Translations under genes and position numbers: made by a program
Assembly: GCA_964577185.1 (NCBI GenBank)
Contig: CAZNYE010000344.1
Coordinates: 1-32,925, forward strand
Source: an uncultured Pseudomonadales bacterium
GTDB lineage: Bacteria > Pseudomonadota > Gammaproteobacteria > Pseudomonadales > Azotimanducaceae
DNA: 32,925 bases
Reading direction: 5' to 3'
The notes under the pieces: model-generated
Told to the model about the DNA's origin: nothing
The model's database searches: none
What the model saw: only the letters and a program-made list of their open reading frames with translations
Shown here: piece after piece, positions 301 through 18,087 of the stretch
Layout: each line of letters begins with the position of its first letter
Position numbering within the stretch: position 1 is the first letter of the stretch

Positions 301-416
301 TTGAAACGACCGCTAGTGGGTGTTTCCAATGGTCGGTCTTGGGCTAAGAATTGCAGGGAACCCGACAGTTCTTACTGCAATATGAGTGGGATCGGTAGTA
401 GTCTGATGTGATTTGC

Positions 417-1136: not shown

Positions 1137-1196
1137 AGTTGCAGAACTTCGGACTGCCTATGCAGCCGAGATTTCCTGATCGCGACTTCGCTATTG

Positions 1197-3026: not shown

Positions 3027-3999
3027 TTGAAATGTCTCCTTTTGCCTTTCGAAGTCAATACCTTTGAGATCATAGGTTGTTCCTCAAGTAGTCGGATACG
3101 CTAGAGTTCCACATCTGTGGCCACATGCAATTCCTGTGCTGCCGTCCAATCGCGTCGCCGCGAATCACTAACGCGTGCGGTCGTGCGCCGAGAACGGGGC
3201 GGCGTCAGAACTGTTGGAACCATGGCTAGGTACAGCGCCGTGTGTAACCAATCCATGTTGTAGTTCATGGCGACGAACGCGTCTCACTCACCTGGGTCCG
3301 AACAAGACAGCTGAGCTCTTCCTGGAGGTTTTTGCCGAAGCGAATTCATTTTCGCGGTAGCCCAAAGCCGCGCATTGCAGGAGGAACCGTTCTTTTCGAT
3401 TGAATCGTTTGAGGATTTGGATTACATCTGACAATTTAACCTCGAGAGTTCGTTGGCGAGGCCAGAAACTAGGCGAGATAAGCAGTCTGTGGCGGAATTA
3501 TTCACTTTAGTTACCCTTTCGGGTTTCTCAGGACAGGAGACCCCCTAGAAGTGGCCTTTTGTACGCCATAGCGGTGTCAAGGTGCGCCATGGCACCAAGC
3601 CAACCATCTCTCGTATTTCAACTCATATCTTGTTCCAGTCGTTCACCACTCGATCTCGGAAGACGGCTGTAGTTGAACTCTTGCTCAAATATTCGATGAC
3701 TCCAGTGAGCTCTTTTGAAATAATATGTATCGCCTCCTCTAACGGCCTTTGTCGAGCGTAGCTTACTTCGTAAGAATTCATCTTATGTCATCGTATAGAA
3801 GAAAGGCCTCGTTGAACGACTCTTCATGAGTTAATTCACCATATTGACGCCCAGAAATGTGGTCCAATCGAACCGCGAGTTCCAACAGCGAATATGTTTC
3901 GCGTTTTTCTAGGTCTTCGATGAACACTTCGTTGTTCATCTTTCCCGAGAACGAAAGTTCTTCCGGTGGTAGCTGAGTGTTTTCAATCCGGATTTCATC

Positions 4000-4296
4000 T
4001 TGTGGTTGGTTAAGGGTGAACAGCAGCAAGTGATCTTTGTGGATCCCAAAGGACTGCGAAATGTAGGGCCAGAAGACCCCAAGATTCAGTTTTACAAAAC
4101 CATCAAGGAAATTGAACAACGCCTCGGCGACACGTCCGTGAAACTGCACTCATTCATAGTTTCGAATACACGCTCAGACACAATTCGGAGGCAATGGAAC
4201 TTGGAGAAGGAGGACATGGAGGCACGGAATGTGCTGTTTCAAGAGGAGGATCAGGATACGTATGTGCGGACGATGCTTAATGTGTGGGCGGACTAG
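4000..4296 (+). pseudogene. possible C-terminal remnant of a PD-(D/E)xK-type nuclease (TTG-initiated 98-aa ORF)
   Basis: '[29 protein letters not shown]' resembles the '(E/D)xKG' block at the C-terminus of restriction/helicase-associated nucleases. There is no upstream coding continuation in any + frame, and it overlaps the minus ORF 3778..4149. Confidence 0.25.
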
Positions 4297-4512
4297 CAGG
4301 ATTTGGAGAATCTCGTTCATTTGAGCCTTAAACGGTTGTTGAAGGATGCTTAGGCTGTAAGGTCGAGAATCTAAGTGCGGTCGTACGGCTCTTCATTGAC
4401 AACATCGGTCTTGCGAACGGTTATTGATGGGCGGGAACAGCTTGAGGTGTTCGCCTCACGTGCCGGAAGTCGTGGTAGCCTCACGGCGCATCGCTAACGG
4501 AAGGTGATCTAA

Positions 4513-5151
4513 ATGGCTAGCCTGCATTGGAAAGGCGATCAACTGTGGTATTGCCTGCGGGGGAACTGGCACCCCGCTGGGCAGTTGAAATTGCTCAACA
4601 AACAGTGGATTTTCTTTCTTACGGATCTTGACAATCCGCAAATGCAGATGAACGTTGGCGCATACTCTTCTGCGGAAGAAGCGAGAGAACTGGTATCTGA
4701 GAACCCTGCACTAAGGATAATGTTCAGCAAATGGATGGCGAGACAAAAGGAAATTGGATTTCTCGCAATGCAGTATGGGGATGCGGAGTTAGAACAGATG
4801 GCGTCGAAACACATGAAGCCAGTCGTTCAGTCCATGGGCTACAGCCTACAGGATATGCGAGATATTTCTCAGGCTGGCGTTATCGATAACCTTCTTAGGG
4901 AGGCGCTAAGGAACGCGAAGTTCGTGATCGCGGATCTTAGTCACGGCAATAACGGGGCGTATTGGGAGGCCGGGTTCGCCGAGGCACTAGAAAAGCCGGT
5001 CATTTACACGTGTGAGCGGCTGCAATTCGAGAGTTTCAAGACTCACTTCGACACAAATCACTGCACGACTGTAATGTGGTCTTCGGACGATGCAGAGGCG
5101 TTCCGCAGAGATCTGGCAGGGGCTCTCCGACGTTCTCTAGGAATGGCTTGA
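4513..5151 (+). CDS. nucleoside 2-deoxyribosyltransferase/TIR-like domain protein with unknown ~90-aa N-terminal domain
   Basis: AAGGTG Shine-Dalgarno sequence lies 7 nt upstream of the ATG. The C-terminal half 'FLAMQYGD...NAKFVIADLSHGNNGAYWEAGFAEALEKPVIYTCE' matches the 'ADlt..npNV.yE.G.A..lgKPvi' signature of NDT/TIR-like Rossmannoid domains. Confidence 0.65.
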   Translation: MASLHWKGDQLWYCLRGNWHPAGQLKLLNKQWIFFLTDLDNPQMQMNVGAYSSAEEARELVSENPALRIMFSKWMARQKEIGFLAMQYGDAELEQMASKHMKPVVQSMGYSLQDMRDISQAGVIDNLLREALRNAKFVIADLSHGNNGAYWEAGFAEALEKPVIYTCERLQFESFKTHFDTNHCTTVMWSSDDAEAFRRDLAGALRRSLGMA

Positions 5152-5169
5152 GACTCGTAATCGAGTCTT
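5150..5169 (+). terminator. weak hairpin overlapping the stop of the 4513..5151 gene
   Basis: AGACTCG (5151-5157), TAAT loop, CGAGTCT (5162-5168) form a perfect 7-bp stem. No U-tract follows, so intrinsic terminator function is doubtful. Confidence 0.25.
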
Positions 5170-5754
5170 ACGCTTCCAAAATTCTCTAATTGGACGGAGG
5201 TTCGATTGCAGCACCTCATTCCATGAGGCGGCTTTTAGTAAGGGCGCTTTCATCGAGAATATGTGCCACAGAACTCATAGCCGCGTAAAGTCGGCCGTCA
5301 ACCGCGTGCTTCGCCAATTGACGTACTTTCTCAAGGGAGATGGAGAGGCACAGGTATATCTCAGTTGTGTTCACAGCCAAGGGTATCGGCTGATTGAGCA
5401 TTCAGGACAAAGAGGAAGTGCTGAATCTAGCCCCCAATCACAAATCAGTTTCGTAGCATTGCCGTGTTAGGGACTAAGCCTCGCCGTTTAGATGGGCTCG
5501 GGCCGGAGAACTTGGAGATTTTTGGTGATGTGCCATAAGTCATTTCCCGTGCCCATTCGCCGGGGCCAAGAAGTGCTGCGGGTTTTGCCTCGCCGAAAAG
5601 CTATGAACAATGGGACCGAGGGCATTCCAAGGCCTGATAGTGGTCGGCGGGTTGTCAAGGCGACATTGTGCTGCACTGCGGAGCGCCCGACGGAGTCCGT
5701 CGCAACAGGGGTGGGGAATGCAGTGCATGGCTCGTAGGTCTGCGGCGAAGCTCG

Positions 5755-6228
5755 CTAGTACGTCAAGGTTACTTCACCTGCGGGAAGGAACAGAAATCTG
5801 CCAGCATCAACAATTAGGGTGCAGTGCTGAATGTAATCCATGCCGACAAGCACCGAGTAGACGGGGGGTTTGGTCGTGGGAGGGTGAATCGCCGCTCTGT
5901 CCATGAGCACGGGGCGCGAGAGATATCCTTTTCCGTCACGCCAAGGCTTAGTGGACTGATGCTTCAGGGAAATCAAGAATCGAACGCGTTCAGTAGTAAT
6001 CTCCTCACCTCCGGCTGGAGATATATACGCGGGCGCTATGCCGCTAATCCCAATTGTATCGGCTGCTTCCTGAGTAATAAGAGTGCCGGGTGTTCCTGTA
6101 TCTATAAGCGCAGGAAATTCGACCATCTTTAATCTACTAGGAGGAGGGGGCGATAACCCTACAGTGACGAGGAGCTTTCCATCAGTTACTCGGTCCCATT
6201 GTCCCGGACTTGTTTGATTCGATAGCAA
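5755..6228 (-). CDS. retropepsin-like (clan AA) aspartic protease
   Basis: 'FPALIDTGTPGTLITQEAADTIGI' contains the D-T-G active-site triad in the typical hydrophobic-hydrophobic-DTG context of bacterial retroviral-like proteases. Confidence 0.65.
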   Translation of the reverse strand: MLSNQTSPGQWDRVTDGKLLVTVGLSPPPPSRLKMVEFPALIDTGTPGTLITQEAADTIGISGIAPAYISPAGGEEITTERVRFLISLKHQSTKPWRDGKGYLSRPVLMDRAAIHPPTTKPPVYSVLVGMDYIQHCTLIVDAGRFLFLPAGEVTLTY

Positions 6229-6472
6229 AGCCTAACCCTATAGCACCTACTTCGATAACATGCTTTTCGCCTACTACGAACAGCGAAAAGTTGCCTAGTC
6301 CGTACTGATTGAATCCATCAACATAGGCGCGTTCTTCAAGTTCATAAGCTCTAATGAATTTGCCATTGTGAAATAGTGCCGTCTTACCGGGGTGCTTTAG
6401 TTCGAGGGACATTTCCATGTCCTTGTAAGCGTCCCGGTTCTGTCTTGTTTGATCTGATAGGAAATCCGGCAT
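6182..6472 (-). CDS. small protein (96 aa), DUF5678-like, upstream partner of the aspartic protease
   Basis: 'KHPGKTALFHNGKFIRAYELEERAYVDGFNQYGLGNFSLFVVG' resembles small proteins found beside clan AA proteases. It overlaps the protease ORF by 47 nt in a different frame and is preceded by an AT-rich upstream region. Confidence 0.45.
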   Translation of the reverse strand: MPDFLSDQTRQNRDAYKDMEMSLELKHPGKTALFHNGKFIRAYELEERAYVDGFNQYGLGNFSLFVVGEKHVIEVGAIGLGFAIESNKSGTMGPSN

Positions 6473-6736
6473 CGTGAACGAAAATGTAGCAAAAACCTGG
6501 AGCGCCTAGTTGAAATAAACTCAAGACATCCCAGTGTAACAAGAAACATTTTCGACATCTCACGAAACGTTTGGGTGTTGGTTCCAGAAATTCCCGTATT
6601 TCCTATAAATGTAGTTGAACATCTCTCAAGGACGGTACTATCAAATAATGCCCTCTTTCGGCGTGAAATTGACTCGCCCGAGAACGAAATGAGGGCCCGG
6701 AACGAGTCTAAAAACAGCGCACAGAATTGAAGCAGT

Positions 6737-7501
6737 TCAGTCCTCATTGAGCATTGCGTCGTCGGTGAGTATGAGGAGCGTTAGCGTTTCGTCTGGCCCA
6801 TTAGCTATAGTTTGTTCCTCAATCTGGAATCGGTGTGCGCGCGAGCCCTTTAACCAAGCATTGGCCTTGATAGTTCGAGGCTGTATGGAGTTAGGCTTAC
6901 CGCCATACTGAATGTCAAACGCCAAGCTCTCCGGGGCGAGCTCTTGTTGAGGAAACCACCGATCAGGAACGCGCGGGGAGCGGCAAAACCACTTATATCC
7001 ATGCGGTCCATGACAGACCAACATTGCGGGAGATTGAGTGTTTTCCATAAATCGGATAGCGGTCGCTGTCCGACTCGTGTCGAACTCATTCGCAAGGAAG
7101 CTGATAGCACCAAAACTCACTGTACTTAGATTATCCGCCATCGGTCGAAACAGATAGCGTGGCATGAGAAGGTCTGCGGCGTAGTTGTCAGCCGCTCTCT
7201 CCACAGAAGTGGACGAATGTGGCAGATAGTCTTCGACGCGACATGTGAGGCAACGACCTCGATGGTGGTGCCAATGTCCTAGCTCGTGGGCAATCGAAAA
7301 TCGCTGCCTGCGCCACTGGCTATCTTGATTGACCGAGATTATCGCTTGGTTGACGCTGCCAATGATCCTGGCGTCGCAACCATCAAGCGCGGTGTATCGA
7401 ACACAAGCGTTTACGTGAAAGGCTATTGCCTCAAGATCAATTTCGTCAGGCCGCGTGACTCCCAGCTCTTGCAGTAGGGCTTCGGCTGGTGTAAGTCGCA
7501 T
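6737..7501 (-). CDS. ImmA/IrrE-family zinc metallopeptidase (DUF955-type)
   Basis: HExxH motif 'FSIAHELGHWHHH' followed by 'ERAADNYAADLLMPR', typical of ImmA/IrrE. ATG at 7501..7499 overlaps the stop (7503..7501) of the upstream gene. The ORF track starts one codon earlier, at a TTG. Confidence 0.8.
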   Translation of the reverse strand: MRLTPAEALLQELGVTRPDEIDLEAIAFHVNACVRYTALDGCDARIIGSVNQAIISVNQDSQWRRQRFSIAHELGHWHHHRGRCLTCRVEDYLPHSSTSVERAADNYAADLLMPRYLFRPMADNLSTVSFGAISFLANEFDTSRTATAIRFMENTQSPAMLVCHGPHGYKWFCRSPRVPDRWFPQQELAPESLAFDIQYGGKPNSIQPRTIKANAWLKGSRAHRFQIEEQTIANGPDETLTLLILTDDAMLNED

Positions 7502-7950
7502 CAACGATTTCCTTCATCGGTTTCCGAATCTAAGAGCCCGAGTTCCGCGAGATTTTCAAGCATGCCGCGCACATCGGAATCTGAAAGTTCACTCTCTTTG
7601 CGGGCAGCCATGGTCAGCATTTCCACTCCCTTACTGCGCTCGATAACAGAATGAAGCAGAGCGCGGGCATCACGGATATCCACGGGAATTGTGATTGAAA
7701 TACCTTTATTAACTTTGGTTGCAGCGGCACCTGCTTTCGCCGAAGCCATCCGCTGCTTATTGGCAATCAGCAGACTTTGTTCAAAAAGGACTCGCATTTC
7801 ATCTGCATTTCGTTCCGCCTTGCCTCCTTCATCTAAGAATTCAGCCAACATTTCCTCATCCGATGCGTCCAAGATATCTTGAACAAGTGCGTCGGCCAAA
7901 CGGCCAAGGCCCTTTCGGTCACTTACATTTTTCTCGGTCATGGCTTCCAC
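7501..7950 (-). CDS. hypothetical acidic protein (149 aa) between the sigma-like gene and the ImmA-like protease
   Basis: ORF translationally coupled at both ends (13-nt overlap with the upstream gene, stop/start overlap with the downstream gene). Helical, acidic composition with no recognisable HTH. Confidence 0.55.
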   Translation of the reverse strand: MEAMTEKNVSDRKGLGRLADALVQDILDASDEEMLAEFLDEGGKAERNADEMRVLFEQSLLIANKQRMASAKAGAAATKVNKGISITIPVDIRDARALLHSVIERSKGVEMLTMAARKESELSDSDVRGMLENLAELGLLDSETDEGNR

Positions 7951-8480
7951 CCTTGAGGGTATTTCTTGTCAATTCGACGGCGAATCAGCTTCCGCTTTGT
8001 ATCGTAAGCTCTCTTGTCAAGGTCAGTTAGCTCGCGCAATTCCTCTCCCGTAAAGCCCTCGATGATCCCCTCCACGATATCTCTAGCCACCAAATCATCT
8101 TCAAAGAGCGAGAGGATATCCCTGCGCACACTTTCATACTCCTCTGCACTGGAGATCTGGTCGTCGAGACTCTCGCCAGAGTTTGATGCGTCAGATTCCA
8201 CATCAATACCCACGCTCTCCATACGATGCGTGAGTCTCTGATGCTCTCCATCGCTGATGCTTCGCATGGATTCTGCGAAGAACTTGACTACGTCTACACT
8301 TCGAGGACAGTGACGATTTCCGCGAAGTGCACGAACAAAGGCTTCCTGAAGCAGATCTTCGGCGGAAATCGACTTCCTGGCATAGCGATTAGCAATCTTC
8401 CTCAAGCGTACCCAGTCGGCATCCGACAAGGATCGGACCGCTTCGGCAATCTCTCCTGGGCTCTTTGTACCTTCGGACAA
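7938..8480 (-). CDS. sigma-70 family (ECF-like) sigma factor homologue
   Basis: Region-2-like 'AEDLLQEAFVRALRG...VVKFFAESMRSISDGEHQR' and region-4-like 'IIEGFTGEELRELTDLDKRAYDTKRKLIRRRI' lie in the expected order and spacing. Confidence 0.55.
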   Translation of the reverse strand: MSEGTKSPGEIAEAVRSLSDADWVRLRKIANRYARKSISAEDLLQEAFVRALRGNRHCPRSVDVVKFFAESMRSISDGEHQRLTHRMESVGIDVESDASNSGESLDDQISSAEEYESVRRDILSLFEDDLVARDIVEGIIEGFTGEELRELTDLDKRAYDTKRKLIRRRIDKKYPQGWKP

Positions 8481-8522
8481 CGTGTAGCTCCCTTTTGCAC
8501 CAATGCGAATTAGTCAGCGTTC

Positions 8523-8550
8523 CGCGGACATTATGTGCTCAATGTCCGCG
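8523..8550. promoter_or_regulatory. perfect 10-bp inverted repeat (CGCGGACATT-N8-AATGTCCGCG) in a divergent intergenic region; candidate operator
   Basis: Read directly: 8523-8532 CGCGGACATT, 8541-8550 AATGTCCGCG. A related half-site AATTGTCCGCAT follows at about 8559-8570. It sits between divergent genes starting at 8480 (-) and 8604 (+). Confidence 0.4.
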
Positions 8551-8603
8551 AAGGCCCTAATTGTCCGCATAGGATAAGGACTATTTCAAACGGGAACCAA
8601 CCA

Positions 8604-9062
8604 ATGTCAACGCTCGAAATATCCGAAATGTCCGACCGAGGGGAACATCGCTGGGGAATCAGTTTGATCTCTGATGAGGGGGTCGGGATTCTCAAGAGCC
8701 TTAGCCCGCTTGCAAAGGGGGCCGCGCTGGCGTCGGCAAAATCTCTAAAACACAAAGGACCAGACGCTTCTCTTTTTGAGAGCAGCCCAGAGGATCTGAA
8801 CAGGCCTGCTTGGATCTTCGAGAAGCAAGAAGACACTTGGGTTCTCAAATTCACTCTGGTTACCGAAACGCCATTTGAAGTCCTGACAAACAAGGTGGAC
8901 TCTGTCATCTCCCCGATGATCGCGGACGAGAAGGAGTTTGAGGCTGTGAGGTACACCTTGACGAAGGCTGAGATAAAGTGGAACCCTCCGGAGGCGGATC
9001 CCGCCTACATTGAAAAACAGTCCGACATGACTCCAACTGTTGGCATCCCCGGGAGCTGGTAG
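8604..9062 (+). CDS. hypothetical protein (152 aa), first gene of the E1-like operon; possible tandem YegP/DUF1508-like repeats
   Basis: ATG at 8604 is preferred over the GTG at 8535, which lies inside the inverted repeat. 'EHRWGISLISDEGVGILKSLSPLAKGAALASAKSLK' and 'AWIFEKQEDTWVLKFTL...' look like YegP-type repeats. The protein ends ...TVGIPGSW. Confidence 0.55.
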   Translation: MSTLEISEMSDRGEHRWGISLISDEGVGILKSLSPLAKGAALASAKSLKHKGPDASLFESSPEDLNRPAWIFEKQEDTWVLKFTLVTETPFEVLTNKVDSVISPMIADEKEFEAVRYTLTKAEIKWNPPEADPAYIEKQSDMTPTVGIPGSW

Positions 9063-9425
9063 ATGGGGCCATCATTGGAAATGAGAGAGGCGCTTGATAG
9101 ATTCTTCAAGTGGACTTTGACCAATGTCTCGGAACTGGAGAATCCGGTGTTGATCGTGCTGGACTACAGCCCGCAGGATGACGGACGCCCCTTATCTATT
9201 GCGTATGACTACACCAACGGGCCGAAGTGCTGGCTCAGCGAAACGAAAGTGCGAGATTTAGACAGCACAGGCCCAAACCCCAACTCCAACTATCGACAGT
9301 TTGCTTTTGAAGGCCGAAGGTTTTACCCCTATTCAATTGTGCCCCTCTCCACCACGGTGTTTGAGGACATCGAAGAGTTCAGATCTGCATGTCTACGTCT
9401 CTACCATCACATAGATTGGGGTTAG
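9063..9425 (+). CDS. hypothetical protein (120 aa), second gene of the E1-like operon
   Basis: The ATG immediately follows the TAG of the upstream gene. Protein-like sequence with single candidate Cys sites ('NGPKCWLSE', 'RSACLRLY'). No family recognised. Confidence 0.55.
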   Translation: MGPSLEMREALDRFFKWTLTNVSELENPVLIVLDYSPQDDGRPLSIAYDYTNGPKCWLSETKVRDLDSTGPNPNSNYRQFAFEGRRFYPYSIVPLSTTVFEDIEEFRSACLRLYHHIDWG

Positions 9426-9431
9426 AATTTG

Positions 9432-10175
9432 ATGAGCATTGACGTGCGCACGATCGCCGGCCTGGGCATGGATGTCGTAGAGAAGCTCAGATCACTGCGC
9501 TTTTGCATTGTCGGATGCGGGGGCACCGGGGCAAACTTCGCTGAATTGCTGGTGAGAACCGGAGCCAAAAGACTGACCCTTATCGATGGTGACCTAGTCG
9601 ACGAATCAAACCTTAACCGGGTGTTCAGTTTTTGTGCGGCGGACGTTGGTCAGCCCAAGGTTGAAGCGCTGAGGAACCGGTTACATTCGATTCGTCCCAA
9701 CGTAGAAGTTTCCCCGCTTCAGGATAGCTTCAGAAGGTCGGAAGACCTATTGGACGATCATCCTGCAGGACAACGTGTCAGGGACGCCGTCTACGATTCT
9801 GACGTTGTGTTCATTGGCACAGACAGCAACACGTCTAGGCTGGCAATTGAAAGGCTTTGTCAGGATAAGGGCCGTGGAACACTACTGTCGTGTGGTGTGC
9901 GGGTGGATCGTAAAGCTGGTGTCTTCGAATATGAGTGTTCTTGGCGACCTAGAACACCGGTGGACCTTGAGACGGCCAAAGGTTACGGACCGGAAAACGC
10001 ATCGTACGCATCGATAGTTCTCGAAGCTACTTCAGTTGCGTTCACGATGCTTCTCAGCCACTTGAAGTCCGAACAGGGCGGTTTCAGATCATACTTCAAG
10101 AGATACGATCCTAGCTTCCGACCAGTCTTTACCGAGGTGGACAGAACGTCCAATAACAGTACACCGTCGATCTAG
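9432..10175 (+). CDS. ThiF/MoeB/HesA-family E1-like adenylyltransferase (minimal, 247 aa)
   Basis: 'FCIVGCGGTGANFAELLVRTGAKRLTLIDGDLVDESNLNRV' (glycine loop at 9513-9530) and 'VVFIGTDSNTSRLAIERLC' match the ThiF/E1 nucleotide-binding and Mg/Asp motifs. It starts 6 nt after the previous stop. Confidence 0.8.
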   Translation: MSIDVRTIAGLGMDVVEKLRSLRFCIVGCGGTGANFAELLVRTGAKRLTLIDGDLVDESNLNRVFSFCAADVGQPKVEALRNRLHSIRPNVEVSPLQDSFRRSEDLLDDHPAGQRVRDAVYDSDVVFIGTDSNTSRLAIERLCQDKGRGTLLSCGVRVDRKAGVFEYECSWRPRTPVDLETAKGYGPENASYASIVLEATSVAFTMLLSHLKSEQGGFRSYFKRYDPSFRPVFTEVDRTSNNSTPSI

Positions 10176-10647
10176 TATCCCAAGCGCGAAGAGCATCCTT
10201 CCCCACGATCTTTCCGTTGATTATCGCCATGAAATGGCCATGCAGTAGCGCCACGAACCGACCTTGCCGCCTATTTCGAAGGGCGCCTAGCGTCGAGGCG
10301 TCGGTGGAGTAGAGACTCTCAACGTTCAGGTACTTTAGGGCGATCGCAAATTCCCGATTTGTAACGCCACCGTAAGGCCAGTTTTCAGCGCATAACTGGA
10401 AGGCCTCTATGATTCGGGCTTCTGGGATCCAAGGTGCCGCCCAGTAAAGGGAGGCCAGGGCGCAATCGTGCACCCCCGCTCCTACCGTGGTTGGGCGCAT
10501 CAAATGGTTGCCCGCCAGCCCAACCCATATTCTATCTGCCAGCCTGCGAACAGCGGGCAATCCTTGGCTGCGCATGAAGCCTGCAACGCGCCCAGCGTCA
10601 CGCTTGAGAAGGAATATTGACCTGTACATGGAAGAGCACGCTAGCAT
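10129..10647 (-). CDS. papain-like (C39-like) cysteine peptidase, convergent with and overlapping the 3' end of the E1-like gene
   Basis: 'GAGVHDCALASLYWAAPW' (Cys codon at 10462-10464), then 'GVTNREFAIALKYLNVE', then 'FVALLHGHFMAIINGKIVG' give the Cys...His order of C39/papain-fold peptidases. Start is set at an internal Met (10647) because the upstream part of the ORF covers the vapC remnant. Confidence 0.5.
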   Translation of the reverse strand: MLACSSMYRSIFLLKRDAGRVAGFMRSQGLPAVRRLADRIWVGLAGNHLMRPTTVGAGVHDCALASLYWAAPWIPEARIIEAFQLCAENWPYGGVTNREFAIALKYLNVESLYSTDASTLGALRNRRQGRFVALLHGHFMAIINGKIVGKDALRAWDTRSTVYCYWTFCPPR

Positions 10648-10679
10648 GAATGAAGGGCGCGCAGCAGGCACTTTGCCGC

Positions 10680-10885
10680 TTAGCGTGTCCCACGTCGAAT
10701 AGGATCTAAGAACTGGATTTCGGGCAAGAGTCGTTCTTTGTCGGTGACGACCACACAATTGTGCGAGACCGTGTTCGCTGTGATGATTTGAAGAAATCCT
10801 CGTCTACCTTGGCAGCCATCAAGCTCAAACGAGAATCCGGTAGGGTGGGCTTGGCGACGGTACTGACAATGTTGGTGTCGAGAAG
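10680..10885 (-). pseudogene. vapC: decayed PIN-domain (VapC-type) toxin gene: no start codon, internal deletion and frameshift
   Basis: My translation gives 'LLDTNIVSTVAKPTLPDS...' directly after the antitoxin stop but preceded by an in-frame TAG. A second frame gives '...IITANTVSHNCVVVTDKERLLPEIQFLDP', a typical PIN C-terminus. Total length is about 70 codons against about 130 expected. Confidence 0.5.
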
Positions 10886-10893
10886 CTACCGAT

Positions 10894-11133
10894 TCACAGG
10901 TCAATCTCTCGACCTGGCTCGAGTGGTCGCTGCGGAATCGCGTGATCACCCACAAGCGGTGAGCGCCGAAGTGCTTGTAGGATTGCGCCTCTTTCTTGTG
11001 CCTTGCCGACGAGCTCACGGCGCGTGACTTCCCGAAGCCTTTCAGCCCCTGGGCCGTCCTGGCACAATCGATCGGCGAACAAGCGGATAAGCTCGCGATC
11101 CGTCTCCCGCCCAATGATCTCGAAGCGGGTCAT
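10894..11133 (-). CDS. vapB: FitA/VapB-like (Arc/RHH-type) antitoxin homologue, divergent
   Basis: 'FEIIGRETDRELIRLFADRLCQDGPGAERLREVTRRELV' aligns without gaps to the 'ltIRnLddelkrrLrvRAa.hGrSmEaEaReILr' pattern. The C-terminal '...PLEPGREIDL' tail is typical. It lies immediately upstream of the PIN remnant. Confidence 0.45.
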   Translation of the reverse strand: MTRFEIIGRETDRELIRLFADRLCQDGPGAERLREVTRRELVGKAQERGAILQALRRSPLVGDHAIPQRPLEPGREIDL

Positions 11134-11370
11134 ACCGCGCTGCGTTGATTGGCTGCGACCTTTGTTAATGGTCTGTCTTTGAAGTGACCCGTCCAAGATT
11201 TGTCTCCATAGCAATGCAAGAAAAATATAGGGTAACGCCCTAGAAAACAAGTTATCGACAGATCTGTGGCCTACAGTAGACGCAGTCGAGAAGCAGTGCC
11301 ATTCTCACACACTGCAACAGCGTTAAATTTGTTCCTACGAGCAACCACCGAAAACTGACAGACTGAACCA

Positions 11371-12063
11371 ATGATCACGGAATCAGACCGATTGCAGGCT
11401 CAGTTTGAGGTTGGAGATGAAGTGACATTCGCCAGCGCTGGCAAGGGGCGAATGCATGGCAAGATTTCGAAGCTCAATCTCGAAACTGCCACGGCACATT
11501 GTGGAGAAGACCGTTGGCTTGTCCCGTATCGACTACTCAAGGCGGTGGGTGGGGCGCCCCTCGAAGACAGACATGAACGGCTGATTGAGGTTGCCCGGGA
11601 AGCGCGAGAACTGATGGACAGGCACGGCCTCAGCGAGTGGGCCTTTCAATATAGCCCCGCTCGACAAAGGCTTGGCCTGTGCAAGGAAAAAGAGAAGCTC
11701 ATTCAACTCGGGCGGCGCCACGCGCTAAACGATGACCCAAGCCAAGTCACGGACACCATATTGCATGAAATCGCCCACGCGCTCGCAGGCGCGAAAGCTG
11801 GACGCGGACCTGCTTGGCGCGAGATCGCGAAGCGACTCGGCGCAACGCCGAAAGCGCTGAAGCCAAGCGACCCAGAGGTTGATGACAAGATTAGAAGTGC
11901 CGTGTCGGTGGGAATGACAGCGAATTTCCGCGCTGCGCGAGGCCGCATTCTCACCGGGATAATTGTCAGGCTAAATCGAAAGACCGTGCGGGTCTCTTGC
12001 GATGGTCGCATGATGCTGGTGCCTTATGGCTGCATGGTGCTTCCCGAAGGCGACAACTTTTGA
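11371..12063 (+). CDS. SprT-like zinc metalloprotease domain protein
   Basis: 'RLGLCKEKEKLIQLGRRHALNDDPSQVTDTILHEIAHALAG...GPAWREIAKRLG' gives the SprT-like core with an HExxH motif. Confidence 0.7.
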   Translation: MITESDRLQAQFEVGDEVTFASAGKGRMHGKISKLNLETATAHCGEDRWLVPYRLLKAVGGAPLEDRHERLIEVAREARELMDRHGLSEWAFQYSPARQRLGLCKEKEKLIQLGRRHALNDDPSQVTDTILHEIAHALAGAKAGRGPAWREIAKRLGATPKALKPSDPEVDDKIRSAVSVGMTANFRAARGRILTGIIVRLNRKTVRVSCDGRMMLVPYGCMVLPEGDNF

Positions 12064-12090
12064 GTTGATGGCGAAGCAATCCGCAGCGCC

Positions 12091-12864
12091 CTAAGGGAAG
12101 TCCCCAAGCTCCCGCAACATTCGCTTGAGCGCAAAGTGTCGATAGCTCGCGAGTGTCAGATCTTCGATCTCGTCCCAGTCTGCATCATCTTCGACGTCGA
12201 GTTCGATCCACCCGTTGTGGCCTATGTAGGGGGGAATGCGGTAACGAGGGTCGAATGTGAGCGCGGCTTGACCATCCTTCCCGGTCCAGAATTGCAATCG
12301 AATGCGACGTTCCCTGCTGTGGGCGATCACGAAGGTCTTCTTGCCAGCCTTCCAGGCGGGATTGCCGAACTGGGCACCCTCTGCGGTTTCCGGCAGCGCG
12401 AGGCAAATCTCACGCAGTTTGGACAGCACTTCTTGTGCCCTTGGTCTCGCTAAGGGGTCAAATTCTTCAACCGGAAGCGTCTCGGTTGGTGGCTCGATGT
12501 TGATCGTCTCGCCAAGGAGATGTGTTAGATCCCGTGGCGCTACATGCTCGTAGGCTTCTCGCACCCGCTCAGCGACAGTGCTCCAACGCAGGCCCTTGTC
12601 GAGGTGCACGCCAAGCCAGCCCCGCGGCCCAAGGTAGGGCGGCACGAAATAGTACTCGGGCTCAGTGCTCGTATAGAACTCTTGGGAACCTTCTGGGACA
12701 TGTAGCCAAAGCGCGATTCGCCCGTCTCCATGATGATTGACGACATATGTGGCGAAGGTCCTGCCAGCCACACGGAAGTCCGGCGACCCCCGCGATGGTC
12801 GCTCTTCGGTCTCCGGGAAAGACAGGCATACTTCGCGCACCGCATGGCTTATGTTCTTTGCCAA
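12091..12864 (-). CDS. MmcQ/YjbR-family protein (two tandem YjbR-like domains)
   Basis: Two repeats begin 'VREVCLSFPETEERPSRGSPDFRVAGRTFA' and 'LREICLALPETAEGAQFGNPAWKAGKKTFV', the characteristic YjbR N-terminal block. Confidence 0.65.
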   Translation of the reverse strand: MAKNISHAVREVCLSFPETEERPSRGSPDFRVAGRTFATYVVNHHGDGRIALWLHVPEGSQEFYTSTEPEYYFVPPYLGPRGWLGVHLDKGLRWSTVAERVREAYEHVAPRDLTHLLGETINIEPPTETLPVEEFDPLARPRAQEVLSKLREICLALPETAEGAQFGNPAWKAGKKTFVIAHSRERRIRLQFWTGKDGQAALTFDPRYRIPPYIGHNGWIELDVEDDADWDEIEDLTLASYRHFALKRMLRELGDFP

Positions 12865-12907
12865 GGCTAATTCCTTTTGTAGAGGTTACGTGTCATCGCG
12901 GTCATCC

Positions 12908-13693
12908 TCAGGTGGCAAAGGCTACCCTGACCGAGCCAAGCCCCTCGATTCGCGCCTCCACCACATCGCCAGGGGCCACCGGCACCATCGGCCCGAGTGC
13001 GCCGGTCAAGATCGTGTCTCCGGCATCGAGCGGCATGCCCACCTCGACCATCTTACGGGCCAGCCAGAGCGCCGCGTTGAGTGGATTGCCGAGGCATGCG
13101 GCACCGCTGCCGATGGAGGTCTGATCGCCGTTGCGTTCCATCACCATGCCGCATTCGCGTAAGTCGATGTCGCCGAGCTTCACCGGTCGGGTGCCGAGCA
13201 CATACATCCCAGAGGAGGCGTTGTCGGCCACTGTGTCAAGGATTTCGATACGCCAGTCGGCGATGCGGGAACCCACTACCTCGATGGCCGGGAGCGCGTA
13301 GGCGACGGCATCGATTAAATCGATCAATGTGAGCTGATCGCGGCCCAAGGCGGAATGCAGCACCAACGCCACCTCGGCCTCGCAGCGCGGCTGCAACACG
13401 CTGCCCGCAACGATTTCCTCGCCATCGGCCAGGCACATGTCGGCGAATAGCATGCCGAAGTCAGGCTGGTTGACACCGAGTTGCTCCTGCACCGCCTTCG
13501 CTGTCAGCCCAATCTTCCGCCCTACTATTCGGCGGCCTTCCCTCACCCAATGCTCGGTGTTGGTTTGCTGCACGCGATAGGCGGCGCCGATGTCGCCTTC
13601 GGACAATCTGTCGCGGACAGGTTCGATGGGTTCGCCGTCTTGCCAAGCCGTGCGTATGTCAGCGGCTATCTCGGCGATCAAGTCTTCGCTCAT
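12908..13693 (-). CDS. mhpD: 2-keto-4-pentenoate (2-oxopent-4-enoate) hydratase
   Basis: Near full-length similarity to E. coli MhpD as I recall it: '[29 protein letters not shown]', '[14 protein letters not shown]', '[10 protein letters not shown]', '[14 protein letters not shown]', '[10 protein letters not shown]'. Confidence 0.85.
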
Positions 13694-13784
13694 CGCTTGC
13701 TCCTAAAGCGCTCTATTGACACTTTCGCCACCCTTCTACTATGGTTTTCGCCCATTGCCTAATATGATTTTCGCCAAGTAGGAA

Positions 13785-15089
13785 GTGCGCGTTGTGGACA
13801 GCACACACATATTACCCCGGCATCTAAGCGCTGAGCTCGAAGATGCGCTGAGCTATTCGCGTGTTGTGAATGTCGTGGGAGCTCGACAAGTCGGGAAGAC
13901 TACGCTTGTCCGGGATATCCTTCAGGCGGGGCGATTTATCTCGCTAGATGACGATGCGGTACTCGAAGCCATGGAGGCTGATCCTTGGGGCCAATTGCAG
14001 CGCCTTACGGAACAGACGAAGGGGTCGCCTCTGATCATTGACGAAGCACAACGTTCCAAGCGGCTGCCACTGGCCATAAAGAGAGTGGTAGACCTCAGCA
14101 ATCGACCGGGCCAATTCGTGCTCACTGGCCCTTCAAATGTGTTCACGACTCAGCATGTGGCCGATTCATTGGCAGGCCGGATGGTGACATTGACCCTGTG
14201 GCCATTGACTATGGCCGAAACTCTACATAGGAGCCCGTCGCAGTTTCTCGACTGGTCGGTGTCTCCAACCTTGGACATTGCCGATCTGCCCGAACCAGAG
14301 CCCGCGACTAGAGAAGACTATATAGATTACATCCTGAGGGGAGGATTTCCCGAAGTCCGAAGTCTTGAAGAGCGGCGTCGTCAGTTGACATATCGTCAAT
14401 ATGTCAACTCGATCGTTGAGCGTGACGTGGCAGACATTCTCCGCATCCGAAAGAGTGACGCACTCGGCCGCTTAATCAATCTGCTTGCCATTCGTACGGG
14501 CACAGAATTAAACATTGAGGAACTGGGCAAACTCGTCCGAGTGCAACGACTCACCTTGGAGCAATACCTCGATTTATTGACACGATTGTCACTTGTGATC
14601 AAGCTCGGGGCGTGGTCCTCCGGCGAAGCTGGCCGCGAAATCAGAAACGCAAAGCACCACTTCGCCGATACTGGAATCGCGGCCGCCCTTCGTGGGCTAG
14701 CCCTGCCGTCTTTCGACCCTGATGCCAATCCCTCGGCACTCGGCGGACTTCTTGAAAGCTTCGTGTTCTCGGAGCTTCTGAGATCCTCGCCCTACCAGAG
14801 TAATAGTTTTCGGTTCTATCACTGGCGGGACCGGCGCGGCCGGGAGATTGACATTCTTGCCGAGAGCGGAACTGCCTTGTGCGCTGTCGAAGTGAAAGCG
14901 TCGACATCTGTAAGTCATCAAGACTTCAAACACCTTCGATGGTTCGCCACGGAAGGGCCGGGACGGTCCCGTCAGGTGAGCTCATTTGTTCTCTATCTAG
15001 GGGAGCACAAGCTCAGTTTTGCGGATCGGATGTTCGCGTTGCCGGTCAGTTGTCTCTGGGGCGGGCGCAAGAATTCGAGCAGCAATTGA
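13785..15089 (+). CDS. AAA+ ATPase with DUF4143-type C-terminal domain
   Basis: Walker A 'VGARQVGKTTLV' and Walker B-like 'PLIIDEAQR'. The C-terminal 'YHWRDRRGREIDILAE...CAVEVKAS' resembles a PD-(D/E)xK-like DUF4143 block. GTG start. Confidence 0.75.
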   Translation: MRVVDSTHILPRHLSAELEDALSYSRVVNVVGARQVGKTTLVRDILQAGRFISLDDDAVLEAMEADPWGQLQRLTEQTKGSPLIIDEAQRSKRLPLAIKRVVDLSNRPGQFVLTGPSNVFTTQHVADSLAGRMVTLTLWPLTMAETLHRSPSQFLDWSVSPTLDIADLPEPEPATREDYIDYILRGGFPEVRSLEERRRQLTYRQYVNSIVERDVADILRIRKSDALGRLINLLAIRTGTELNIEELGKLVRVQRLTLEQYLDLLTRLSLVIKLGAWSSGEAGREIRNAKHHFADTGIAAALRGLALPSFDPDANPSALGGLLESFVFSELLRSSPYQSNSFRFYHWRDRRGREIDILAESGTALCAVEVKASTSVSHQDFKHLRWFATEGPGRSRQVSSFVLYLGEHKLSFADRMFALPVSCLWGGRKNSSSN

Positions 15090-15183
15090 TTTTGACTTTG
15101 ACAGAATCGCTACAATCGCACACTTCTAAGCACTCGGTCCTCGGCAAGCTCGTGACACAAGCACCGGAACTCGCTGAGCTTCT
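15083..15183. repeat. direct repeat copy 1 (101 bp), decayed duplicate of the nitroreductase 5' region
   Basis: Aligned by eye to 16063-16163 at a constant offset of 980 bp, with 91/101 identical. The start codon of copy 2 (AATG) reads TAAG here. Confidence 0.85.
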
Positions 15184-15222
15184 GAGCGATTTAGCTGCGT
15201 CCAGAATTTTGAGAATCGTAAC

Positions 15223-15699
15223 TCACTCCTCTCTCGGATGTTGGGACGTTAGGACCGCCTCTTTTCCCGCTGCCACTCCTTGTTGCATGGAAAGCGCTCT
15301 TCCGATCAGACGTGCATCTGTTGATTCCGCTACCTTGTTACGCAAGCGGTGATCGGCAGTGATCATTGGCCAGTTGTTTTCTATGGCCAACATCAGGTAG
15401 ATGCAGTCGTAAGCGGCGTGATCGAGTTGAATTGCAAGCTCCGTTGCGCCGTTCATTAGGTGCCGCGTTGGCAAGATTTCAACGTTCGCTTGTTGCAATA
15501 GTCTAGATGCGGCGATGGCTTCATCATGTGTGAGATCACCTCGTCGCGCCTTTTTCCAGAGAATGTTCGCGCACTCGGCTATCAATAGATCCGGAGCTGA
15601 CAGTAAGCAGTTTTCCAAGACTGCAACAGCGAGCGAGGAATCTGATTCTTCCACTACCCACTTAATTGCCACGCTGGCATCTATAACGAACCGCCTCAC
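15223..15699 (-). CDS. vapC: PIN-domain toxin (VapC family)
   Basis: 'MRRFVIDASVAIKWVVEE' and 'PMITADHRL' are PIN acidic-residue blocks. 4-nt overlap with the upstream antitoxin gene. Confidence 0.8.
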   Translation of the reverse strand: MRRFVIDASVAIKWVVEESDSSLAVAVLENCLLSAPDLLIAECANILWKKARRGDLTHDEAIAASRLLQQANVEILPTRHLMNGATELAIQLDHAAYDCIYLMLAIENNWPMITADHRLRNKVAESTDARLIGRALSMQQGVAAGKEAVLTSQHPREE

Positions 15700-15935
15700 C
15701 TTTCTTGACGGCCTTCACGTTGCAAGTCTTCGGATGGCGTTTGTCTTCTACCTTGCGTGAGTTTGCGCATACGGGCCGCTAGCTCAATAAACGAGGGCTC
15801 AACTTCAGCGGAGAGCGCTTGCCGCAGTATCTCTCGATGCTCCGCTTCTGCGGAGCGTCCGTTGTGGGCGGCGCGCCGCCTGAGGCGGATCACAAGGTCA
15901 TCTTCCAAATTGCGAACTTGCAAACTCTTGGGCAT
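15696..15935 (-). CDS. vapB: FitA/VapB-like Arc/RHH antitoxin
   Basis: 'LQVRNLEDDLVIRLRRRAAHNGRSAEAEHREILRQAL' is a canonical ribbon-helix-helix antitoxin N-terminus. Confidence 0.8.
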   Translation of the reverse strand: MPKSLQVRNLEDDLVIRLRRRAAHNGRSAEAEHREILRQALSAEVEPSFIELAARMRKLTQGRRQTPSEDLQREGRQER

Positions 15936-16062
15936 ATCCGACAGCTCGCCTCAAAACGCTATATCTGACCTCATTGATAACAAGAAGTCAATTGAATTCT
16001 GCGAGTTCAAACTGTCTGTACCATGCGGCTACTAGCACTTTCGCCAGCCGTGCGACCACACT

Positions 16063-16163
16063 CAATTGATTCCGACCTTGACAGAATCGCTACAATCGAA
16101 CGCTTCAATGCACTCGGTCCTAGGCAAGCTCGTGACAAAAGCACCGGAACTCGCAGAGCTTCT
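16063..16163. repeat. direct repeat copy 2 (101 bp) covering the upstream region and first codons of the nitroreductase gene
   Basis: See copy 1; the pair brackets only the VapBC cassette. Confidence 0.85.
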
Positions 16164-16728
16164 TTTGAAGCGGCGTTCCACCCTCGCGGCGAACATGCGC
16201 GGTCCGGGGCCGGACCGTGAGTCGCTGGACACGCTCCTGCGTATCGCGACGCGCGTGCCTGATCACGGGAAACTCACACCTTGGCGCATTCAAGTGCTTT
16301 GGCCGCAAGGACAGGCTAGGTTAGGTGAAATCTGCGCCCAGATCTTTCGCGAGGACAATCCAGGTGCAAGCGAGGAAGCGATTGCATTTGAGCGTCAGCG
16401 TCCGCAGAGGTCGCCGCTGTTGCTCGTTGTGACCTCCCATCCCAACAAGGAGAAACTGGCAAAGGTGCCGCTGATTGAGCAGCAGATCTCTGCCGGAGCT
16501 GTGTGCCAGAACCTGCTCGTTGGTGCCACGGCGCTGGGCTTTGCCTCTCAGTTGCTTACTGACTGGCCCGCATACCACCCGAAGGTTCGCCGCGCCCTCG
16601 GTCACAGCGAAGATACCGAGATCATTGGCTTTGTGCATATCGGCAGTCCGGCCAAAAGGCCTCTGATCGAGCGACCGAGGCCGGAGATTGAAGACGTGGT
16701 TTCAGAATGGTCGGGTGCGGAAAACTAA
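16108..16728 (+). CDS. YdjA-like NAD(P)H nitroreductase family protein
   Basis: 'LLKRRSTLAANMRGPGPDRESLDTLLRIATRVPDHGKLTPWRIQVL' matches the YdjA-type pattern 'RRS...P.P....L..il..a.rvPDHgkl.PWRf'. ATG at 16108 is preferred over the in-frame TTG at 16066. Confidence 0.75.
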   Translation: MHSVLGKLVTKAPELAELLLKRRSTLAANMRGPGPDRESLDTLLRIATRVPDHGKLTPWRIQVLWPQGQARLGEICAQIFREDNPGASEEAIAFERQRPQRSPLLLVVTSHPNKEKLAKVPLIEQQISAGAVCQNLLVGATALGFASQLLTDWPAYHPKVRRALGHSEDTEIIGFVHIGSPAKRPLIERPRPEIEDVVSEWSGAEN

Positions 16729-16729
16729 A

Positions 16730-17056
16730 TTATCGCAATAGACGTTGTTCCAGTATATTCTGCAAACTTCTTCTTCCATCCACGATCAACTGGACAAACA
16801 CTTCTCGTCCGATCACCTCGTAGATGATGCGGTAGGGCTTGAAGTGGATTTCACGAAATTCCTTGATGCCTAGGGGTAATAGCTCCGGTAGAAAATGTCC
16901 TCGTTCGGGGTTTTGCTCAAGCCGCTCGCAGGTTTCGAGTAGTTTCTCAAGCACATAGTGGGCTTGGTCCAATGAATCTCGTTGTGCGATGTATGCCGCG
17001 GGTTCTGCCAAGTCGATTTCGGCTTCCTCGACGATCCTCACTCGATATTGGGTCAC
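16730..17056 (-). CDS. parE: RelE/ParE-family toxin
   Basis: '...[37 protein letters not shown]' is a typical ParE/RelE C-terminal block. GTG start. Confidence 0.75.
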
Positions 17057-17061
17057 GCCTC

Positions 17062-18087
17062 TTGCTTTGCGAGCTCAGCCTGTTCTCTGGCGCTGGCGGT
17101 ATGGATTTGGGCGTCGACAAGTCGGGATTTAGGACGCTCTTGTCCGTCGAACGCGATGTGCACGCTGGCGCGACGCTGCTCGCGAATGCGGGCCGCAAAC
17201 TGGTGTGGCGAACCGATGTTCGGGCGCTTGATCCCTTGCGCACAATTCAATTGCTAGACCTAGGTCCGGGTGATCTGGCGCTCCTTCACGGCGCGCCACC
17301 CATCCACCAATCGCCCGGCCCTTCACTTCGGGTCGAAACGCTCCAATCTCCCATGTTTGAAATGCTGAGGTTCGCTGAAATCTTGCGACCAACTTGCGTC
17401 TTCATCGAACAACCACCGAGCGCGATTAGCTCTTGGCTTACCGGTGGTCGACGACTGGTTGGTGAGCTGCACCGAAGATTTGAGGCGCTTCAATATGACC
17501 TTCACTTGGACCTACTTGATGCTGGCATCGCGGGGCTGTCTCAGTCACGTGTTCGTGCCGTGTTGGTCGCGGTGCCTGCGGGAGCGGAATTCGAATTGTC
17601 GCTTGCCGGAATATCCGCAATCCAATCGGTTGGTGAGGCTTGGCAAGGCCTGCCTATGCCGACCCCAAGAGGAGTTCAGTCGAATCTCGCGAATCATGTT
17701 GACGCTACGCCTCCAAGGGCAAGGGAACGCATCCGATACGTGCCTGAAGGCTCTTGGCTCAGCAAAGCGAAGAACGCGCCCGCCGAAGTGAAAGGAAAAC
17801 TGACCGCGAGGGATACAACCAAGTTTCGTCGTCTTGCGTATCAAAAGCCGTCGCAGACACTGTTTGCGGGGGAGATATTCTTCCATCCCACAGAGGATCG
17901 GTATATCACCCCACGCGAAGCGGCGCGATTACAGGGGTTTCCAGACAGCTACCGATTTGAAGGGCCGATTGGGCGGCGCACTTCGGCGGGCGCAAGTCTT
18001 GATCAGCATCGCCAGATCGCCGAAGCCACACCGCCACCTTTCGCAGCAGCGCTCGCATCCAAACTCGCGGCACTCTTGCCTGCTTGA
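17062..18087 (+). CDS. DNA (cytosine-5)-methyltransferase homologue lacking the catalytic cysteine (probably inactive or decaying)
   Basis: Motif I '[13 protein letters not shown]' (17083-17100), motif VIII '[11 protein letters not shown]' and motif IX '[20 protein letters not shown]' are present. Motif IV reads '[10 protein letters not shown]' (17296-17310) instead of GGPPCQ. Motif VI reads 'FIEQPP' instead of ENV. Motif X reads 'IAEATPPP' instead of GNAVPP. A TTG at 17062 is the only start-like codon close to motif I. Confidence 0.6.

Follow-up and report, generated by a model that had tools for sequence, protein, structure and literature searches.

A four-gene cassette with a Bub-related E1 and a predicted BubB-like E2: a probable new Bub-related variant

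A compact four-gene locus

The window analysed here (32,925 nt; positions 1 to 32,925 of contig CAZNYE010000344.1, assembly GCA_964577185.1, from an uncultured Pseudomonadales bacterium of the Azotimanducaceae) carries four closely packed genes, A, B, E1 and D (Table 1). They encode a candidate modifier (A), a protein with the predicted fold of a ubiquitin-conjugating enzyme (E2; protein B), a protein of the ubiquitin-activating enzyme (E1) superfamily and a candidate peptidase (D). An earlier reading made from the letters without database searches, here called the sequence-only reading, had proposed a ubiquitin-like conjugation module of Bil or Bub type at this site. A scan of open reading frames (ORFs) agrees with its three genes of 152, 120 and 247 aa, separated by 0 nt and 6 nt, and with its convergent ORF, whose end at 10129 overlaps the 3′ end of E1 by 47 nt. 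Every motif that it quoted (GCGGTG, SNLNR, TDSN, ...TVGIPGSW and NGPKCW) is present. The ATG of B lies immediately 3′ of the stop codon of A and in frame with A.

Homologue alignments favour a start of D at 10575 (148 aa) over the one read earlier at 10647. For A, a GTG at 8535 was weighed as an alternative start codon and dropped, because all homologues begin at the MS(L/T)LEI position. The 3′ ends of E1 and D overlap, so transcription of one must read antisense into the other; the overlap is 47 nt in the window and 62-80 nt elsewhere (L002, L004).

Table 1. Positions of the cassette genes, the regulatory genes and the flanking defence-type genes in the window
Feature	Positions	Strand	Remarks
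A	8604-9062	+	152 aa; ORF scan
B	9063-9425	+	120 aa; 0-nt gap after A, same frame; ORF scan
E1	9432-10175	+	247 aa; 6-nt gap after B; ORF scan
D	10129-10575	-	about 148 aa; ORF extends to 10758; convergent to E1
C-terminal tail of A	8982-9062	+	residues 127-152; predicted mostly disordered, short helix 133-137; ends GIPGS-W
CapP-type metallopeptidase regulator	6737-7504	-	255 aa; PADLOC capP 9.1e-63 over full length; Pfam Peptidase_M78 9.8e-13
CapH-like protein	7501-7950	-	149 aa; weak match, PADLOC capH 6.9e-5
Sigma-70/ECF-like protein	7938-8480	-	180 aa; Pfam Sigma70_r2 1.1e-6; NCBIfam sigma70-ECF 1.8e-5
Divergent intergenic control region	8481-8603		123 bp; sequence inspection
PDC-S39 (DUF7380/DUF4209)	among 1197-3026, 4513-5151, 13785-15089, 16972-18087		defence-type gene; PADLOC 1.7e-111
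TIR/nucleoside-deoxyribosyltransferase-like protein	same flanking set as PDC-S39		defence-type gene
PDC-S01 (AAA_14/DUF4143)	same flanking set as PDC-S39		defence-type gene; 1.3e-135
Dcm-type C5 methylase	same flanking set as PDC-S39		defence-type gene

Conservation, distribution and decay

Loci were fetched through contigs with A homologues and through a D-profile scan of one genome per species in 185,579 GTDB species, and were then searched with hidden Markov models of the four families. The A family comprises 49 homologous clusters, all of 148-153 aa, the B family 11 (word-indexed search) and the D family 114. Of the 15 D-anchored genomes, 14 have A, B, E1 and D side by side and one (L014) holds decayed fragments only; the four are also neighbours in all A-anchored contigs of sufficient length. 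The set is conserved in about 20 distinct loci from at least eight phyla, and these four genes alone are kept across the loci. Since the A and D families are large and the four genes stay adjacent across loci, the gene set and its conservation are far beyond chance.

The sequence-only reading had called for a survey of this neighbourhood, and in the survey the peptidase-like gene is kept beside the operon (14 of 15 D-anchored genomes) in either orientation: D is mostly convergent with E1 and overlaps it, and is co-directional in the L006-L012 lineage. That the linkage holds even where the orientation has changed argues for D as part of the system. P0191, the one remote D relative that could be placed in a locus (L028), has 29% identity to D and still lies inside the same A-B-E1-D cassette.

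The scan places the cassette in 15 of 185,579 species. Hosts belong to Latescibacterota, several Acidobacteriota orders, Binatia, Gemmatimonadota, Alpha- and Gammaproteobacteria and Thermodesulfobacteriota, and are metagenome-assembled genomes (MAGs) throughout. The cassette is rare, its hosts are phylogenetically scattered, and the pattern looks horizontally moved. Nothing matching this cassette type is described in PADLOC, Pfam, NCBIfam or the literature searched, as expected if the module is, as had been suggested, an undescribed one.

Some copies are disrupted. An IS1595 transposase gene lies between B and E1 in L001 (8789-9820) and is missing in the sister locus L002; L024 has a 2.2-kb insertion between E1 and B (about 6613-8882); and in L004 an insertion sequence separates the regulator from A (5989-7809). 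Together with the decayed L014, these copies suggest that the cassette is frequently inactivated. In L006-L011 (six contigs from different samples, including NCBI MAG GCA_001753035.1) B is split by a frameshift exactly at its conserved P-Y-S motif (e.g. L006 3806-4170), which marks either a fixed pseudogene or a programmed frameshift.

E1 is related to the Bub E1s

E1 matches Pfam ThiF at 1.6e-33 and has all the adenylation residues, which are invariant in the family (G-x-G-x-x-G, D52, N62-R63, K76 and D131). It is the clear ThiF/E1 adenylyltransferase that had been read from the sequence, and its relationship can be narrowed to the E1s of Bub systems. The protein is a single 247-aa adenylation domain that starts directly at the Rossmann fold. 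Aligned by hhalign to three BubCD sequences, the E1 family scores Prob 99.8% and E 1.1e-27 over 222 columns, with 35-43% identity to the Bub E1 adenylation domain. In a tblastn search of PLSDB plasmids the best match among the 30 records listed is an Agrobacterium BubCD (42% identity, 5e-20). The three records examined (H27-H29), which have the lowest E-values among those 30, all lie in annotated Type I Bub operons with genes for a multiubiquitin protein, a ThiF protein of 465 aa and a protein with DUF6527; the Pseudanabaena operon encodes a separate E2/UBC protein as well, which is the split form. On these comparisons, E1 is a homologue of the Bub E1 adenylation domain.

The likeness extends into the crossover loop. 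Tyr185 (AKGY), invariant in 22 sequences, aligns by hhalign with the crossover-loop Tyr of BubCD (KEAY), which in Citrobacter is Y370, the residue that is catalytic in the oxyester relay of Bub. An invariant Cys169 stands where the E1 crossover region begins; it is kept throughout, including in the remote locus L028, and has no counterpart in BubCD. PADLOC E1-E2 (Cap2) models cover only about residues 15-155, the Rossmann part, and the C-terminal half of E1 searched by itself has no match in the PDB.

As a single-domain E1 of about 250 aa, of homodimeric type and with all ATP/Mg residues, the protein resembles ThiF/MoeB and MccB; unlike them it has no ThiS/MoaD partner, CxxC zinc motifs or peptide clamp, and its scores fall far below cut-offs. 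The absence of thiamine and molybdopterin partners noted earlier holds: ThiS, MoaD, ThiG and MoaE were not found among the window ORFs scanned against Pfam (about 400-20550) or among the genes called in related loci. For want of partner genes and domains, readings of thiamine/molybdopterin and of MccB type were rejected. A related alternative is a sulfur-carrier system, in which A would be thiocarboxylated at its C-terminal Gly after trimming, as in CysO/Mec+ or QbsE/QbsD. The best NCBIfam matches of E1 are indeed ThiF and MoeB models, though at 72-82 bits against cut-offs of 159-376, and removal of C-terminal capping residues by a peptidase is a feature of such systems. We nevertheless consider this highly improbable, as the neighbourhoods examined share no ThiS/MoaD beta-grasp, rhodanese, ThiG, MoaE or sulfur-using enzyme, E1 is accompanied by an E2-like protein and by CapP-type regulators in defence islands, and the distribution is sporadic (15 of 185,579 species).

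B is predicted to have the fold of BubB

The sequence-only reading took the 120-aa protein for a possible miniature E2, and structure prediction points the same way. An AlphaFold2 (AF2) model of B from 11 sequences (predicted local distance difference test, pLDDT, 92.3; predicted template modelling score 0.85) has a helix, a four-stranded meander, a hairpin and further helices. The sole meaningful Foldseek match in the PDB is 9eae_C, Citrobacter BubB (E 1.7e-2, prob 1.00, template modelling (TM) score 0.60/0.57); it spans the full length, and all other matches have prob below 0.12 and TM below 0.3. B is thus predicted to be a BubB-like non-canonical E2. Searched as single sequence or family profile, B matches nothing in Pfam, PADLOC, NCBIfam or the PDB at E <=10.

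Two sites in B are candidates for catalysis. K55-C56-W57 are invariant in all sequences aligned, and Cys56 (K/R-C-W) stays so down to the remote locus L028. In the P-[YF]-S motif, Pro89 and Ser91 are kept in every full-length B, Ser91 likewise down to L028, and residue 90 is Tyr or Phe. Ser91 falls on the serine of the BubB S-x-H motif in a non-significant hhalign alignment (E 0.25) with which the spacing to the C-terminal helix agrees; B has no accompanying His. Ser91 is thus a tentative counterpart of the BubB catalytic Ser, the mapping of catalytic residues being tentative because sequence alignments between B and BubB are not significant. The NGPKCW segment, proposed earlier as part of the E2-like layout, may not hold the catalytic site, since the weak comparison with Bub favours Ser91 in B and the significant one points to Tyr185 in E1.

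A is predicted to be YegP-like, with a conserved tail

The AF2 model of A (pLDDT 72) contains two beta-beta-beta-alpha-beta units, residues 3-58 and 69-126. Foldseek ranks two tandem DUF1508 proteins highest for A: SO3888 (2k49) and YegP of E. coli (2k8e), at prob 1.00 and a TMt of 0.58-0.61. Because of these units and these structural matches, A is predicted not to be a beta-grasp protein and to consist of a tandem YegP/DUF1508-like fold followed by a tail. The faint likeness to YegP/DUF1508 noticed earlier is therefore borne out by the predicted structure; the suggestion that the 152-aa protein is a beta-grasp ubiquitin-like protein (Ubl) is not. Of the two folds that the sequence-only reading wanted checked in the small proteins, the UBC-like one is predicted for B and the beta-grasp is lacking from the model of A. 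A single sequence or family profile of A finds nothing in Pfam, PADLOC, NCBIfam or the PDB at E <=10, and hhalign finds no significant relationship with the multiubiquitin protein BubA.

The C-terminal tail is the best-conserved part of A (KAEIKWNPPEADPAYxEKESDLTPTxGxPGS), and residues 135-152 are modelled with pLDDT below 50. Invariant residues of A are W126, P128, P129, A131, D132, P133, A134, K138, D141, T143, G147, G150 and S151. Of 49 cluster representatives, 48 have G-x-[PK]-G-S as their exact C-terminus; only in the window copy does a W follow, and in the L027 copy the tail is extended by SSQV. A and B are encoded by a single ORF in five loci (L017 and L018 of Binatia, L019 of Bryobacterales, L023 of Azotimanducaceae, L025 of Vicinamibacterales), with the junction ...G[LI]PGS-[GR][PA]Q[LI]S.... 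At split loci a stop codon directly follows PGS and B starts within a few codons, in frame in 10 of 13 loci.

Extensions and a fused B fit processing near the tail Gly. In the five genomes with A-B fusions proteolytic processing would be obligatory, and D is then the only conserved candidate for it. The cleavage after Gly that had been proposed earlier is consistent with the conservation of the tail, with the extensions in the window (W) and L027 (SSQV) and with the five fusions. The mature C-terminus of A may be either Gly150 or Ser151. The PGS codons, CCAGGGAGC, might also serve B as a Shine-Dalgarno sequence. Such a role does not suffice to explain why PGS is conserved: the fused forms retain it, with variation at synonymous sites, which puts the selection on the protein.

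Such a tail would also suit an E1 that modifies the C-terminus of A without conjugating it, in the manner of MccB or PaaA (adenylation, then cyclisation, amidation or the addition of a nucleotide or small molecule), with D releasing a tail product or modified A serving as the effector. PDB matches of E1 include MccB and PaaA (1e-9 to 1e-7), the best-conserved part of A is predicted to be largely disordered, and an invariant C-terminal Ser would be atypical for E1-to-E2 conjugation. We regard this alternative as quite unlikely. E1 has no N-terminal peptide-clamp domain and is far closer to Bub E1s than to MccB. The predicted fold of B is that of a BubB-like E2, and five genomes encode A and B as a fusion. 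The cassette has no conserved transporter or immunity gene, and A lacks a C-terminal Asn.

D is a candidate peptidase

H36 and C38 of D never vary, Asp stands at residue 37 in almost every close relative, and H114 and D127 are kept in every full-length close relative. The order is thus C38, H114 76 residues on and D127 13 further, with an invariant Gly-His motif; we take this order and spacing to resemble those of small Cys-His-Asp hydrolases. D is accordingly labelled a candidate Cys-His-Asp processing or deconjugating peptidase. The 'papain/C39-like' name given to it earlier reflects motif order only, as no database or profile search links D to a peptidase family.

A profile search of 1.84 billion proteins found 78 representatives of D relatives. 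The remote ones (P0185-P0242) are about 150 aa long and share the motifs H-x-C ... G-H-[FY]; H36, C38 and H114 are conserved in more than 90% of them, the Asp less so. Of 34 remote members, 21 match phrog_3754, a phage family to which no function is assigned (best 7.6e-10). The remote relatives were not found in INPHARED or IMG/VR. By hhalign the D family is unrelated to two BubE sequences (Prob 0.4%, E 0.15).

A CapP-type regulator divergent from the cassette

Upstream of A, on the minus strand, lies an operon whose first gene encodes the sigma-like protein. The CapH-like gene overlaps the sigma-like gene by 13 nt and capP by 4 nt (Table 1). The 'ImmA-type regulator' of the sequence-only reading is a strong CapP match (PADLOC 9e-63), its gene preceded by the weak CapH-like and sigma-70-like genes. 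Its best PDB match is 7t5t 'CapP' (3.8e-7). The CapH-like protein has no Pfam helix-turn-helix (HTH) match and no PDB match. The trio is conserved in L029, the closest long relative (counterparts of 176 aa, 146 aa and CapP). Upstream of most other loci are HTH/M78 pairs, or HTH-M78 fusions with a partner of about 166 aa. Fusions of about 360-375 aa with this partner (MHVLVSDTSVLVDLERG...), which looks PIN-like by eye, replace the trio in L017, L018, L019, L023, L025, L006 and L012.

The arrangement has precedents. Lau et al. reported capH and capP with a sigma-70-family factor in 24 cyclic-oligonucleotide-based antiphage signalling systems (CBASS), and CapH and CapP accompany 31% of Bub operons. 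The window likewise has an M78 CapP beside a CapH-like gene, divergent from the A operon.

The divergent promoter region contains a perfect palindrome, GCGGACAT-N10-ATGTCCGC, at 8523-8548, which is a candidate operator for the CapH-like repressor. ATGTCCG(C)-like half-sites also occur at 8560-8568 and, inside A, at 8627-8634. The minus strand of the intergenic region has one weak sigma-70-like promoter match.

Relationship to known systems

Type I Bub (6E.1/DUF6527) operons encode BubAB, BubCD and BubE (Ye et al., bioRxiv 10.1101/2024.11.21.623953). BubAB is a Ubl-E2 fusion, which the JAB domain of BubCD cuts after the Ubl Gly. The cassette resembles them in several respects: (i) the gene order is modifier, E2, E1, peptidase; (ii) the E1 adenylation domain is homologous, with the crossover-loop Tyr conserved, and the E2 has a predicted BubB fold; (iii) fused and split modifier-E2 forms both occur; (iv) CapH/CapP or ImmA/IrrE regulators lie upstream, in a defence-island or mobile setting.

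Unlike Bub, the cassette E1 has no N-terminal JAB domain, and the cassette has no DUF6527/BubE, to which D is unrelated (hhalign E 0.15); DUF6527 was not found in A, B, E1, D or the neighbouring ORFs scanned. The candidate modifier has no predicted beta-grasp and ends G-x-P-G-S, whereas the Bub modifier ends in Gly, and the cassette has an invariant Cys in both E1 (C169) and E2 (C56) where Bub has none. Among the features that define Bub, then, the cassette has an E1 with homology to the adenylation domain of BubD and an invariant crossover Tyr, and lacks the DUF6527 serine protease BubE and a Gly-ending modifier of one to three beta-grasp domains.

Bil (BilABCD) is less close, in that the cassette has no JAB, no multi-domain E1 (IAD-AAD-CYS) and no beta-grasp ISG15-like Ubl. 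The Bil/Bub parts list of the sequence-only reading therefore stands in part: E1 is Bub-related, B is E2-like and a fourth gene is conserved, but the JAB, DUF6527, beta-grasp and multi-domain E1 that define Bil and Bub are lacking. The cassette is probably tied to Bub in evolution, as judged from the E1 homology with its catalytic Tyr, the predicted BubB-fold E2 and modifier-E2 fusions with shared regulators. Since DUF6527, JAB and beta-grasp are missing and cysteines are present, it is a probable new Bub-related variant and not a member of Bub.

A YegP-like modifier is less odd than it may seem, because seven Bub Ubls carry a tandem DUF1508 before the beta-grasp domain (Gong et al., bioRxiv 10.1101/2024.11.21.623966) and YegP homologues follow the DNA-damage regulators CapK/CapS in 57 loci. 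As in those DUF1508-Ubl1 modifiers, a tandem DUF1508/YegP-like module would be placed on a protein handled by Bub-type machinery. They have a C-terminal beta-grasp; A has a 26-residue tail only, and it is not recognisable as DUF1508 by sequence.

Type II CBASS (Cap2/Cap3) offers the parallel of an E1/E2 machine that activates the flexible tail of a non-Ubl protein, as we propose for the cassette, and it shares CapH and CapP regulation, including the sigma-factor variant. It differs in that Cap2 is an Atg7-related E2-E1 fusion, the peptidase is a JAB and the substrate is a cGAS/DncV-like nucleotidyltransferase (CD-NTase); a scan of the cassette and nearby ORFs revealed neither a CD-NTase nor a JAB.

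Another reading keeps the conjugation chemistry but makes A a target or sensor and not a tag for transfer: B and E1 might, for example, ligate A to itself or to B, as auto-modification in cis or oligomerisation, so that an effector activity of its DUF1508 domains is switched on and D acts as the off-switch. Bub in vitro yields mainly a BubA-BubB product, CBASS Cap2 conjugates an enzyme and not a tag, DUF1508 proteins occur alone under CapK/CapS control, and no further effector gene is conserved in the cassette. Nothing separates this alternative from conjugation in trans, and no enzymatic motif was seen in A. We judge it unlikely.

Proposed mechanism

We propose, at a probability of roughly 60%, that the cassette is a stress- or phage-inducible protein-conjugation system and an evolutionary sibling of the Bub (6E/DUF6527) pathway. 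By homology to CapH/CapP, the sigma-like/CapH-like/CapP operon would keep A-B-E1 off until DNA damage or infection. D would then trim the A tail at or beside Gly-Ser, removing W, SSQV or fused B. E1 would adenylate the exposed C-terminus of A and take the acyl group on its crossover loop, at Tyr185 or Cys169, of which Tyr185 is favoured because it aligns with the Bub catalytic Tyr. B would accept A on Ser91 or Cys56 and pass it to a target lysine, and D may reverse conjugates too. E1 would recognise A by its tail and not by a beta-grasp, as Cap2 does with CD-NTase tails.

A bolder version, which we hold only tentatively and would sooner doubt than assert, is that E1-E2 chemistry is here uncoupled from the ubiquitin fold: A would be recognised by its 26-residue tail alone, D would represent a new peptidase family, and the relay would combine Tyr/Ser and Cys, possibly with a C-terminal Ser, making a third type of Bub-like antiphage or stress pathway.

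Several observations weigh against the conjugation proposal. As regards A and B, A lacks a beta-grasp domain in a model of moderate quality (pLDDT 72), and its likeness to YegP is structural only, with 0 of 27 A members matching Pfam DUF1508 and an hhalign E of 0.31 against YegP/SO3888. The likeness of B to BubAB/BubB is also structural only (hhalign not significant, global pairwise z = 0.2). The invariant terminal Ser of A has no explanation if Gly alone is needed, and the invariant Cys169 and Cys56 make the chemistry ambiguous. D, a candidate peptidase, matches nothing in Pfam, PADLOC, NCBIfam or the PDB at E <=10, profiles included, and no peptidase family among them. The proposal as a whole is built from catalytic motifs, homologies and gene linkage, and every chemical step is inferred. 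No antiphage activity has been demonstrated for Bub itself. The cassette was absent from the INPHARED phages, PLSDB plasmids and IMG/VR viral contigs searched, and every host is a MAG, which leaves no experimental handle on it.

Bacterial ubiquitination-like systems, among them CBASS Cap2, Bil and Bub, have been worked out only recently, and to our knowledge those of the tag type all use beta-grasp modifiers. If the proposal is true, a tail is enough to direct the E1/E2 core to another fold, and the widespread, uncharacterised YegP/DUF1508 family gains a testable role. The Tyr/Ser and Cys candidates together would be a natural experiment on thioester versus oxyester relays. D points to a new putative peptidase family with remote phage relatives (phrog_3754), and the natural A-B fusions would be ready substrates for processing tests.

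Flanking genes

The four flanking defence-type genes (Table 1) make the region from about 400 to 18000 read as a defence island, and related loci carry type I restriction-modification, Vsr/Dcm and SNF2/DUF1156 genes. The stretch had been called AT-richer; the direction is right and the size mild, GC being about 0.48-0.53 here against 0.55-0.60.

Just downstream of capP, at 5755-6472, two ORFs of 157 aa and 96 aa overlap, the longer of them encoding a retropepsin-like aspartyl protease by a match below the Pfam cut-off. The pair may be the 'TA remnants' of the sequence-only reading; nothing supports a toxin-antitoxin identity. A gene for a SprT-like zinc metalloprotease (230 aa) lies at 11371-12063, about 0.6 kb beyond the end of the D ORF at 10758 (209 aa) and about 0.8 kb from 10575. 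It is probably outside the cassette, because it is not conserved in related loci.

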